From: a virus
DNA: 10,880 nucleotides
Virus genome (UHGV): UHGV-0354908
Strand: one strand, 5' to 3'
Shown: positions 4,274 through 5,646 of the stretch, one piece after another
How the letters are laid out: every line of letters starts with the position of its first letter
Position numbering within the stretch: position 1 is the stretch's first letter
Translations under genes and position numbers: made by a program
The notes under the pieces: generated by a model
Told to the model about the DNA's origin: nothing
Databases searched by the model: none
The model's input: only the letters and a program-made list of their open reading frames with translations

Positions 4274-4675
4274 TTATATGGCTGTCGGCCAGTCAATATC
4301 AGGCGCCTTGGAAGTATCAACCCGGCTTAAAAGCACGCGATATTTTTTCAGTGTAGTTAACTGTGTTCTTTCTTCATCTGTCGCCATGTCTAGGTCGATC
4401 GCATCCTGAAGTATGGAGATCGTCTGGCTTGCTTCGGCTATCAGGTTGGCCTTTTGCTGTTCTGCCTGATTAATTAAATCCTCTTTTGGTACCTCTGGCG
4501 CCGGAGGAAAGGTGAATACCCCGTCTTTATATGTTCCGCCAATCCCGTAAAGGTTATCACCGCACCTTACTGCCTGAGTACCTTCAGGTGGTTCCCATTC
4601 TGTGACGCCATCCCAAACGATAACATTCACAATATTTCCATCACCATCAATTACTGCGTAGTCTTCAGCTTCCAT
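4274..4675 (-). CDS. Tail fibre assembly protein (Tfa chaperone)
   Basis: The C-terminus (...LSRVDTSKAPDIDWPTAI) matches the conserved C-terminal motif of phage tail-fibre assembly proteins. The ATG at 4673-4675 overlaps the tail-fibre stop (TAATG). The track start at 4690 is a TTG and is less likely. Confidence 0.82.
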   Translation of the reverse strand: MEAEDYAVIDGDGNIVNVIVWDGVTEWEPPEGTQAVRCGDNLYGIGGTYKDGVFTFPPAPEVPKEDLINQAEQQKANLIAEASQTISILQDAIDLDMATDEERTQLTTLKKYRVLLSRVDTSKAPDIDWPTAI

Positions 4676-5646
4676 TATGCATACTCCCAAACAATCACAA
4701 TACCCATAGATCCGTTACCACCTGCCAGAGCAGTATTAGGCGTGCCTGTTGACGTCGCAACAGGTCCACCGCCAGCGCCATAACCTGCACCATCAATACC
4801 ATTGGCACCATAAGCAGTAATGAATCCTCCCGCGCCAAAGCGTGACGATCCACCGGGAGAAGAAATCGAAACTCCAGCACTCAAAGCAATGGACGATGCT
4901 GCGCCTTCACCGGGAGTTCCGACAATTACACCCGATCCTGAAGGCGAAGCTGAAACAGTTGCCGCCACAGTTGAGAAGGGGAAAGAGCCTGACGGCCCGG
5001 CTGGTTTGCCAGAATCTCCCCCAGCAGCTGAAACAAGATTGCCGAAAGACGAAGTGCCACCGCTGCTTGCGTAAGGATTAGATGTAGTGCCACCCATCCC
5101 TCCTGAGCCAACAATTACGTTTACGCCGCTAAAACCAGAAGTAAACTGAGCTTTTGCATACGAGCCAGCACCTCCGGCACCACCAACGGCTACCTGGCCA
5201 GGTCCTGCGGCGCGCGCTCCAGCGCCGCCACCGCCGCCGCCAACCATTTCAACGATTACTTTTTTCGTGCCGGCTGTAGGCGTGTAGGTTCCGCTTGTGT
5301 AGAAAGTCTGCACGTTCAGCAGGCGGCCAACGTATCCGCTCTCATCTCCCAAATCAAGGTTTTCGAGAGCCGTTTTCACCGTGCCATCCGATTTGATATC
5401 GCCAAACGGATTTTTGCGGCTTAACAGCAGCGCACGAAGCGCGGTAAGCAACTGGTCGTGCCGCCCTTTCTCCAGGCTGGCACCGGAGGCCTCCACAACG
5501 CTGCAAAGCTCCTCCTGCAACATGTCAAAGTAGTCATCATCCAGATCGGTGGCAGGTGTGCCGGTCTGGGGGTTACCACGGGTAAAACCGTTCTTACCCG
5601 CGCCGAACTTATCCTTCTGCGCGGTTTTCGTGTCTATACGATGCAT
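4675..5646 (-). CDS. Tail fibre protein (conserved N-terminal anchor domain, Gly/Ser/Ala-rich distal domain)
   Basis: 323 aa. The N-terminal ~110 aa ([47 protein letters not shown]...) resemble the conserved proximal domain of enterobacterial prophage side tail fibres. The rest is glycine-rich low-complexity sequence. A GGAG lies 7 nt upstream of the ATG. Confidence 0.85.

Follow-up and report, generated by a model that had tools for sequence, protein, structure and literature searches.

A probable Pam3 gp24-type tail fibre with a glycine-rich tip beside the gtr cassette of an SfV-like prophage

A 323-codon frame in the viral genome UHGV-0354908 joins an N-terminus of ordinary composition to a long glycine-rich C-terminus, and it lies, together with a gene for a tail-fibre-assembly protein (Tfa), next to the genes gtrA, gtrB and gtrC. 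The locus raises two questions: what the glycine-rich frame encodes, and whether its gtr neighbours say anything about the receptor of its product. An earlier note, made from the 10,880-nt stretch of DNA analysed here (the window), had proposed a tail fibre with a conserved anchor and a variable distal part, had read the neighbouring gtr genes as support for a phage that modifies its own O-antigen receptor, and had suggested that GC-rich repeats could promote switching of host range. We consider it likely, at a probability of roughly 0.85, that the gene encodes the single fibre of an SfV-like temperate myophage with a Mu-type baseplate, a short 'torch' of the type of gp24 of cyanophage Pam3.

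A fibre gene in an SfV-like prophage

The window is the attachment-site end of a prophage integrated at a tRNA-Arg gene (argW) and adjoining yfdC. Both the SfV gene order and the identity of the tail genes were found (Table 1), by which the prophage is assigned to the SfV-like temperate myophages with a Mu-type baseplate: SfV, like SfI, SfII and SfIV, has the same order int-gtrA-gtrB-gtrC-terminator-tfa-fibre-gp48-gp47-gp46-gp45-gpP-gpN, with gtrV in the gtrC place in SfV itself. DNA identity to SfV and SfII is 97.7% across window positions 10660-5345, the latter corresponding to fibre residue 101, where it ends abruptly. Beyond that point the SfV/SfII fibre, of 216 aa, has an unrelated C-terminal part of about 115 residues that is not glycine-rich, the SfV/SfII Tfa shares only the C-terminal Caudo_TAP domain with the Tfa of the window, and GtrC and the integrase and attachment site differ too. 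Between the convergent gtrC and tfa stops lies a hairpin with a 9-bp stem, 7 of whose pairs are GC; it is likely a terminator, as judged from the rho-independent terminator annotated in the same spot in SfV.

Over window positions 176-10660, identity is 99.95% with E. coli MRSN346647 and 99.92% with a chromosome of K. pneumoniae. RefSeq annotates the whole prophage in MRSN346647 (L001, the near-identical locus of Table 1), with an HK97-type head and a Mu-type tail. In the window copy an inverted piece of int stands in place of the start of that gene, and upstream of the DNA-circularisation gene there is an end of the IS5/IS903 type. The prophage in the window's own source thus appears damaged, so that the fibre gene there is possibly a relic that is out of use; the copies in MRSN346647 and in the K. 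pneumoniae chromosome (L039) are intact.

Table 1. Features of the window, in order of position
Feature	Position	Strand	Basis and remarks
Integrase (int)	338-1324		RefSeq start at window 167
gtrA	1488-1850	+	Pfam GtrA_DPMS_TM; RefSeq of near-identical locus agrees; context, outside fibre
gtrB	1847-2764	+	Pfam Glycos_transf_2; RefSeq of near-identical locus concurs
gtrC-type gene, GtrII-family	2772-4244 (RefSeq start)	+	Pfam Glucos_trans_II
GC-rich hairpin CCCCGGCTTAAGCCGGGG	4248-4269	.	Consensus scan; between convergent gtrC and Tfa stops
Tail-fibre-assembly gene (Tfa)	4274-4675	-	Caudo_TAP (PF02413)
Tfa residues 66-133, Caudo_TAP helical hairpin	4277-4480	-	PF02413, Mu gpU, AF2
Tfa residues 1-62, tip-specific N-terminal beta domain (putative)	4490-4675	-	AF2 and HMM
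Tail fibre	4675-5646	-	323-codon ORF, stop included
Fibre residues 107-323, distal tip (predicted TNF-like beta-sandwich and glycine-rich lattice)	4678-5328	-	Pfam Gly_rich_2
Fibre residues 1-106, anchor and linker	5329-5646	-	DNA alignment; predicted helices
Mu gp48-like baseplate wedge gene	5650-6234	-	Pfam Phage_Mu_Gp48
Mu gp48-, gp47/J-, gp46-, gp45-, gpP- and gpN-like baseplate genes	5650-10647	opposite to gtr	
gp47/J-like baseplate wedge gene	6225-7283	-	Pfam Baseplate_J

The fibre frame is uninterrupted from ATG to stop, with GGAG 8 nt 5' of the ATG, and its TAA (4675-4677) overlaps the ATG of Tfa in the string TAATG (4677-4673), an overlap that indicates probable translational coupling of the two genes. 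No promoter-like site was found between the fibre and the baseplate genes. The fibre gene follows the Mu gp48-like wedge gene, and fibre and Tfa are syntenic with SfV orf21 and orf22, which bears out the identification as a tail fibre made in the earlier note.

The anchor is common and goes with the Mu-like baseplate. Residues 1-100 have an ordinary amino-acid composition, and their DNA is 95-98% identical to that of SfV, SfI, SfII and SfIV, only as far as window 5345; in a megablast search against isolated phages, these 302 nt of anchor were the only match. Helices are predicted at residues 37-53, 63-75 and 90-96 in an AF2 monomer model whose pLDDT of 36-67 over the anchor would be expected if a trimeric helical stalk were modelled as a single chain. 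The anchor was found in 1,625 of 5,426 complete E. coli genomes, it is related to that of StfP of E. coli e14 (RefSeq names the window anchor StfP), and elsewhere it carries Collar, gp53-like or Gly-rich tips. It co-varies with the baseplate type, loci with Pam3-like wedge genes having other anchors on the same tip, which supports co-inheritance of anchor and baseplate and hence docking on a gp48/gp47-like wedge; the gp48-like and gp47/J-like wedge proteins are the presumed docking partners. In the mechanism that we propose, three fibre chains would associate through their N-terminal ~100 residues, and the resulting helical stalk would dock on this wedge.

The glycine-rich tip and its chaperone

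Residues 101-323 contain 25.6% Gly, 13.5% Ser and 13.5% Ala, and a Gly-rich family domain extends from G107 (GRLLNVQ) to the C-terminus (...GIVIVWEYA). The Pfam family Gly_rich_2 (PF21722) matches residues 119-319 along profile positions 4-223 of 226 with 26.1 bits, a narrow margin over the gathering cut-off of 24.3, and the same assignment is precomputed on many close homologues. An exhaustive search with the tip, run against representatives clustered at 50% identity, matched 4,377 clusters (E<=1e-3), 1,214 of them with E<=1e-10; among the matches listed, the domain reaches the last residue of the protein, preceded by N-terminal parts that range from none to ~490 residues. In the AF2 model residues 110-323 are confident, with a pLDDT above 90 in the Gly-rich part. 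Because thousands of clusters match it and its predicted fold is this confident, the Gly-rich part is real coding sequence and no frame artefact.

RefSeq presents the locus otherwise, as a truncated pseudogene named 'carbohydrate kinase' or 'StfP', in which the Gly/Ala/Ser-rich frame would be non-coding or an artefact; at five loci (L001-L005) the annotation pipeline PGAP calls the first ~100-114 codons an incomplete CDS and gives no annotation for what follows. We regard this view as extremely improbable and have rejected it: the frame is open from its ATG to a family-typical end that thousands of homologues share, it is modelled with confidence and matches a specific structure, and elsewhere the sequence is entered as 'glycine-rich domain-containing protein'. 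The kinase name was likewise rejected, since no kinase family matched in Pfam at E<=0.01 and an NCBIfam search of the fibre, Tfa and GtrC returned no matches.

The best guide to the tip is its predicted structure, a TNF-like beta-sandwich that passes into a glycine-rich lattice of several layers, which is the fold of Pam3 gp24. That protein was solved together with its chaperone gp25 (PDB 7YFW, 7YPX). It has three domains, one alpha-helical for docking, one TNF-like, and one a glycine-rich lattice of four layers, for whose distal loops binding of the receptor was proposed (PMC9608196). When the PDB was searched with a profile, only Pam3 chains matched, weakly and with heavy composition bias (hmmsearch E 0.24), and hhalign aligned the tip with gp24 end to end (probability 85%, E 6e-6); membership of the Pam3 gp24 class thus draws mainly on the predicted structure, the sequence link alone being weak. 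The window fibre is ~21% identical to gp24 and differs from it in its anchor, which suits a Mu/SfV-type wedge and has no sequence relation to that of gp24, and in the glycine content of the domain (26% versus 39% in Pam3); the window phage, moreover, is temperate and has an enterobacterial host. The fibre is an enterobacterial, temperate-phage addition to a solved class and not new in kind, and since its Gly-rich fold has already been solved, we consider it ordinary. What the analysis changes is the reading of a common enterobacterial prophage gene, misannotated as a 'carbohydrate kinase' or StfP fragment, which now falls into a structurally solved class of receptor-binding fibres.

One of the remaining close systems is TFP_Y of the Klebsiella phage SCNJ1-Y, likewise an enterobacterial phage with a Pam3-type TNF-like and glycine-rich tip. 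TFP_Y interacts with LPS, adaptive or compensating host-range mutations fall in its glycine-rich domain, and mutations in the host's O-antigen operon confer resistance (PMC12671077). SCNJ1-Y is virulent, has another anchor and lacks a gtr cassette, and the identity between the two tips is too low for a transfer of specificity. Fibres of Klebsiella myophages from a phage collection, possibly relatives of SCNJ1-Y, match the window tip at 37-47%, and tblastn of the tip against isolated phages gave nothing above 47% identity, so that a receptor annotation cannot be transferred directly from these phages. The glycine-rich domain of the ALK/LTK receptor kinases (PDB 7LIR, 7LS0, 7LRZ, 7NX3) also counts among the closest systems, as does the polyglycine-II adhesin gp38 of T4-like phages, although a comparison of the tip model with S16 gp38 (PDB 6F45) gave no structural match. 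In the actinobacterial siphovirus Bxb1 the domain occurs in side appendages (gp33, the 'tail wing brush', and the tail spike gp29; PDB 9D93) and not in a baseplate fibre, with no sequence-level relation to the window tip past the Gly motifs. A tail-fibre atlas (PMC12143355) makes no mention of glycine, Pam3 or TNF.

In a comparison of 150 diverse representatives, residues 107-210 and the final strand proved conserved, whereas two segments, 211-262 and 275-305, are variable and lie between conserved Gly motifs, a pattern that fits the conserved stem and variable distal tip of Pam3 by analogy. The last 217 residues of each chain would be expected, on the Pam3 model, to form a TNF-like beta-sandwich whose strands run on into a glycine-rich, hydrogen-bonded lattice, and the poorly conserved loops at its far end (~211-262 and 275-305) may touch the host receptor.

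The protein encoded directly downstream has two domains of different distribution. Its C-terminal part is a Caudo_TAP domain (PF02413, 103.8 bits against a threshold of 22.1, residues 65-136 of the 138-aa ORF) and matches gpU of phage Mu (PDB 5yvq) with an E of 1.2e-11. The AF2 model, with an overall pLDDT of 92, has five strands within residues 4-55 (pLDDT ~90), a short linker, and helices at 64-94 and 100-117. This predicted layout is that of Pam3 gp25, which has an N-terminal beta-sandwich (residues 1-55) followed by a C-terminal helical domain (PMC9608196); in the window model the strands occupy residues 4-55 and the helices begin at 64. The hairpin that makes up its C-domain, of the Caudo_TAP/Mu gpU type, has 68 residues as against ~100 residues in the C-domain of gp25.

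The two halves of Tfa were searched with separate HMMs. The N-half was seen only directly downstream of Gly-rich tips among the loci screened: it matches all tip-bearing enterobacterial loci in the tested sets (including L036, L037 and L038, which are described below) and, at 14 of the 28 distant loci, the ORF that directly follows the Gly-rich fibre, being a stand-alone ORF of at most 84 codons in at least nine of these 14. It has no match in the Tfa of SfV/SfII or in the Tfa that accompanies the gp53-like tip at L036 and L037, both of which do contain the C-half. This co-occurrence with the Gly-rich tip, and the absence of the N-domain beside other tips, supports a specificity of the N-domain for that tip. 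We propose that Tfa acts as a two-domain chaperone, coupled to the fibre in translation, whose N-terminal beta domain would grip the TNF-like/Gly-rich region and whose helical hairpin would drive trimerisation.

Modularity and the position of the exchange junctions

In E. coli, Klebsiella, Enterobacter, Raoultella and Pseudomonas, ten or more unrelated N-termini carry tips 45-100% identical to that of the window, and the fold is that of the receptor-binding tip in Pam3 gp24 and TFP_Y, all of which agrees with the view of the earlier note that the distal part looks like a variable, receptor-binding one. At L036 and L037 the exchange is built into the locus: a Pin-type invertible segment places one of two tips on the window's anchor, either a Gly-rich one, which is a more divergent allele than that of the window, or a gp53-like one, and each comes with its own Tfa. 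An anchor that travels with the Mu-like baseplate and a C-terminal module of ~217 residues that is exchangeable are supported by these comparisons.

The junctions lie at window 5345 (residue 101) relative to SfV and SfII, at 5316 (residue 110) relative to L036, and at 5421 (residue 75) relative to L004 and L038. All mapped junctions are within the conserved linker that runs as far as GRLL, and the Gly-rich DNA itself contains none. Alignment to related prophage fibres, a check that had been suggested, thus puts the break where it had been placed: of the ~110 residues called conserved, identity to SfV/SfII ends at residue 101 and the family domain starts at G107. The composition of the remainder, described as rich in Gly, Ser and Ala, has come out as anticipated, and the structure prediction suggested for it gave the confident model described above.

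The same cannot be said of the proposal that GC-rich repetitive DNA in the tip favours recombination. GC content is 0.555 in the Gly-rich part as against 0.55 in the anchor, and at third codon positions it is lower in the Gly-rich part (0.40 versus 0.64). Glycine is encoded by mixed codons (21 GGC, 18 GGT, 14 GGA and 3 GGG); Tandem Repeats Finder reported only a 19-nt GGC run, and the longest exact direct repeat within the 651 nt of Gly-rich DNA is 10 nt. Repeat-driven recombination was rejected because neither these searches nor a k-mer check revealed substantial repeats, and the junctions lie upstream, at residue ~75 and residues ~101-110. Host range, on our reading, would shift by swapping the tip with its Tfa, and often with gtrC, through recombination in the linker before G107, and repeats in the Gly-rich DNA would play no role. 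For the engineering or prediction of host range, the useful boundaries are an anchor that extends to about residue 100, a tip that starts at G107, and a Tfa N-domain that, as the co-occurrence suggests, must accompany the tip.

The gtr cassette and the receptor

The fibre and its chaperone do lie beside a gtr cassette (gtrABC, 1488-4244), as had been described, but the use made of this adjacency is not supported. The order int-gtrABC-tfa-fibre is fixed in the SfV family and is found in SfV and SfII beside an unrelated tip that is not glycine-rich; because the layout is invariant whatever the tip, adjacency of the genes is on its own no evidence of a receptor link between fibre and gtr. Outside this family, loci with the tip mostly lack such neighbours. 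A tblastn screen with GtrA, GtrB and GtrC of the window (E<=1e-4), which misses a very divergent GtrC or gtr genes more than 10 kb away, found GtrA/GtrB within 10 kb of the tip at 0 of 28 loci from other species, and gtr genes were not found at L038, L040/L041, L042/L043 and L045, whose tips are 67-91% identical, or at L036 and L037.

The Gly-rich tip might nonetheless bind the host O-antigen, with the neighbouring GtrC glucosylating it so that lysogens stop adsorbing the phage, tip and gtrC being matched; we hold this only tentatively and would sooner bet against it than for it. Serotype-converting phages offer documented cases of the general model (PMC3636060), coliphage Hf4s being a further one, and Pam3-type tips of Klebsiella phages recognise LPS, with resistance mapping to O-antigen genes. 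Four loci, among them L003, L004 and L005, hold tip A (90-100% identical) with the same GtrC (99%), and L004 does so on a different backbone: a block corresponding to window 1264-5421 (int remnant, gtrABC, Tfa and the fibre gene from its stop back to residue 75) is 92% identical in DNA, and the backbone around it is provisionally taken to be Pam3-like because of its genes for wedge, sheath initiator and baseplate plug (Phage_Wedge1, Sheath_initiator, Pam3_gp18) and because it resembles L040 and L046. The K. pneumoniae locus L044 is near-isogenic with the window (int, gtrA 100%, gtrB 97%, wedge 98-100%, anchor 99%) and differs jointly in its tip (72%), Tfa (43%) and GtrC (unrelated).

Against such matching, tip, Tfa and GtrC are contiguous, so that a single recombination event explains their joint swap without functional coupling. 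At L002 tip A (92%) and Tfa A (98.5%) are paired with a GtrC only 39% identical, and L038 has tip A without gtr. Enterobacterial tips that are 67-69% identical, and those of L036 and L037, also do without gtr, as do the 28 distant loci, and SfV and SfII keep the same layout beside an unrelated tip.

The distribution of the prophage also bears on the receptor. The identical tip, in a prophage that is 99.7-100% identical, occurs in E. coli and in the K. pneumoniae chromosome L039, and database entries list exactly this fibre protein for both genera, on 69 contigs. A mislabelling of E. coli as 'Klebsiella' in these records was considered and rejected, the K. pneumoniae flanking genes yfdC, mlaA and fadL being only 71-78% identical to those of E. 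coli. With identical prophages in both genera, the receptor must be available in both hosts, the candidates being an O-antigen common to the two, the core of LPS and a conserved protein. A tip conserved across host ranges had been named beforehand as a result that would count against the O-antigen model; such conservation is found in part, and is compatible with an O-antigen receptor. Some O-antigens are common to E. coli and Klebsiella, so lysogeny across the two genera is compatible with such a receptor.

The tip may instead bind the core of LPS, or an outer-membrane protein that is conserved in both E. coli and Klebsiella, and not a gtr-modified O-antigen, the gtr genes then being lysogenic-conversion cargo at the attachment-site end. 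We rate this a serious candidate that falls somewhat short of even odds: the presence of the identical fibre both in E. coli and on an authentic K. pneumoniae chromosome speaks for it, the tip family is overwhelmingly without gtr, and glycine-lattice adhesins can bind proteins, gp38 of T4-like phages binding OmpC (PMC12892980). It is weakened by the O-antigens shared between the genera and by the only functional data on enterobacterial Pam3-type tips, which point to LPS. For the torch-type fibre that we favour, an LPS or O-antigen receptor is plausible because the Klebsiella phage homologues bind LPS; by this analogy the receptor would most likely be LPS, whether O-antigen or core, and this is the weakest step of the proposed mechanism.

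The joint exchange of tip, chaperone and GtrC as one block is the most interesting lead. It may be that the tip, its tip-specific Tfa and GtrC form a co-adapted 'bind-and-mask' cassette, exchanged as a unit through recombination at the fibre linker and at gtrB/int, across Mu/SfV-like and Pam3-like backbones and between E. coli and Klebsiella; we think this unlikely, and if it were true, a tip would be kept together with the enzyme that hides its receptor in lysogens. Natural near-isogenic prophages, the window type compared with L044 and L002, are suited to a direct test of the fibre-gtr link. Three loci are each compatible with such a cassette: L004 with its Pam3-like backbone, L044 with all three genes replaced, and the Klebsiella copy L039.

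Block exchange of tip, chaperone and gtrC

A K. pneumoniae locus (L044, CP058548) holds a prophage that is near-isogenic with the window; its int and gtrA are 100% identical to those of the window, gtrB is 97% identical, the wedge 98-100% and the conserved fibre anchor 99%. The Gly-rich fibre tip is 72% and the tail-fibre-assembly protein Tfa 43% identical to the window versions, and the GtrC of this locus (482 aa, no Pfam match) is unrelated to that of the window. Since tip, Tfa and GtrC have all been replaced at once, this locus is a natural block swap. By sequence comparison, the gtr cassette of the window is itself a mosaic. 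Window 2506-4509, which covers the 3' portion of gtrB together with gtrC and a piece of Tfa, is 99% identical to the E. coli locus L005, whereas gtrA and the 5' portion of gtrB (window 1366-2505) have only ~84-92% protein identity to the other E. coli loci. GC content drops to 34-39% in gtrC.

The same anchor occurs in two further loci, L036 and L037, with a Gly-rich tip followed by its own Tfa and, in the opposite orientation, a gp53-like tip that also has its own Tfa; the paired tips adjoin a recombinase remnant. This arrangement is an invertible host-range switch of the e14/Pin type, with the Gly-rich tip as one of the alternatives. In two E. coli loci with a Pam3-like backbone, L046 and L047, both at the dacD-sbmC site, a convergent gene of 484-500 aa follows Tfa in the usual place of gtrC. 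The product of this gene, which may be a membrane protein that modifies the O-antigen on its own, has no Pfam match; gtrA and gtrB are absent from both loci.

State of the prophage and its presence in Klebsiella

Homology of the window to reference prophages ends at 10660, and the last 220 nt (10661-10880) match the ends of IS5/IS903-family elements; an IS has therefore inserted between the DNA-circularisation and tape-measure genes, an insertion that probably renders the prophage of the window's source defective. At the other end, sequence comparison identifies window 1-175 as an inverted copy (95%) of the internal integrase segment 539-713; because this copy stands in place of the initial 9 nt of intS, the integrase start codon is lost. 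The structure points to an inversion, to a recombination event involving another, related integrase, or to an assembly artefact.

A prophage 99.7-100% identical to that of the window, from integrase through tail genes, occupies the equivalent tRNA-Arg/yfdC position in K. pneumoniae GCA_024962985.4 (L039). This chromosome is genuine K. pneumoniae, with just 71-78% identity to E. coli in the flanks, and a prophage so nearly identical within it indicates very recent lysogeny across the two genera.

Fibre annotation and short chaperone-like ORFs

In the E. coli loci L001-L005, RefSeq/PGAP treats the fibre as an incomplete pseudogene comprising only its first ~100-114 codons, named 'carbohydrate kinase' or 'StfP', and the Gly-rich two-thirds (window 4675-5305) is without annotation in all five examined. 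None of the family and fold searches supports the name 'carbohydrate kinase'.

In many distant Proteobacteria, an ORF of 65-84 codons directly after the Gly-rich fibre resembles Tfa solely in the N-terminal beta domain and lacks the Caudo_TAP helical domain; it may be a minimal stand-alone chaperone. The table names five examples among others that exist.

Coordinates of features in the compared loci
Locus	Position	Feature
L044	6001-8850	Near-isogenic prophage with replaced tip, Tfa and GtrC
L036	5057-7331	Anchor with paired tips
L037	5063-7331	Anchor with paired tips
L046	7512-9014	Convergent gene after Tfa
L047	7512-8966	Convergent gene after Tfa
L009	10831-11055	ORF after Gly-rich fibre, Tfa N-domain match
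L013	10834-11058	ORF after Gly-rich fibre, Tfa N-domain match
L014	10735-10929	ORF after Gly-rich fibre, Tfa N-domain match
L021	10651-10848	ORF after Gly-rich fibre, Tfa N-domain match
L034	10642-10836	ORF after Gly-rich fibre, Tfa N-domain match

A direct similarity of 36 nt (72%) between window 4611-4646 and 4685-4720 pairs the first strand of Tfa (GNIVNVIVWD) with the last strand of the fibre, and may be due to chance or to strand mimicry that involves the chaperone and the C-terminal end of the fibre.
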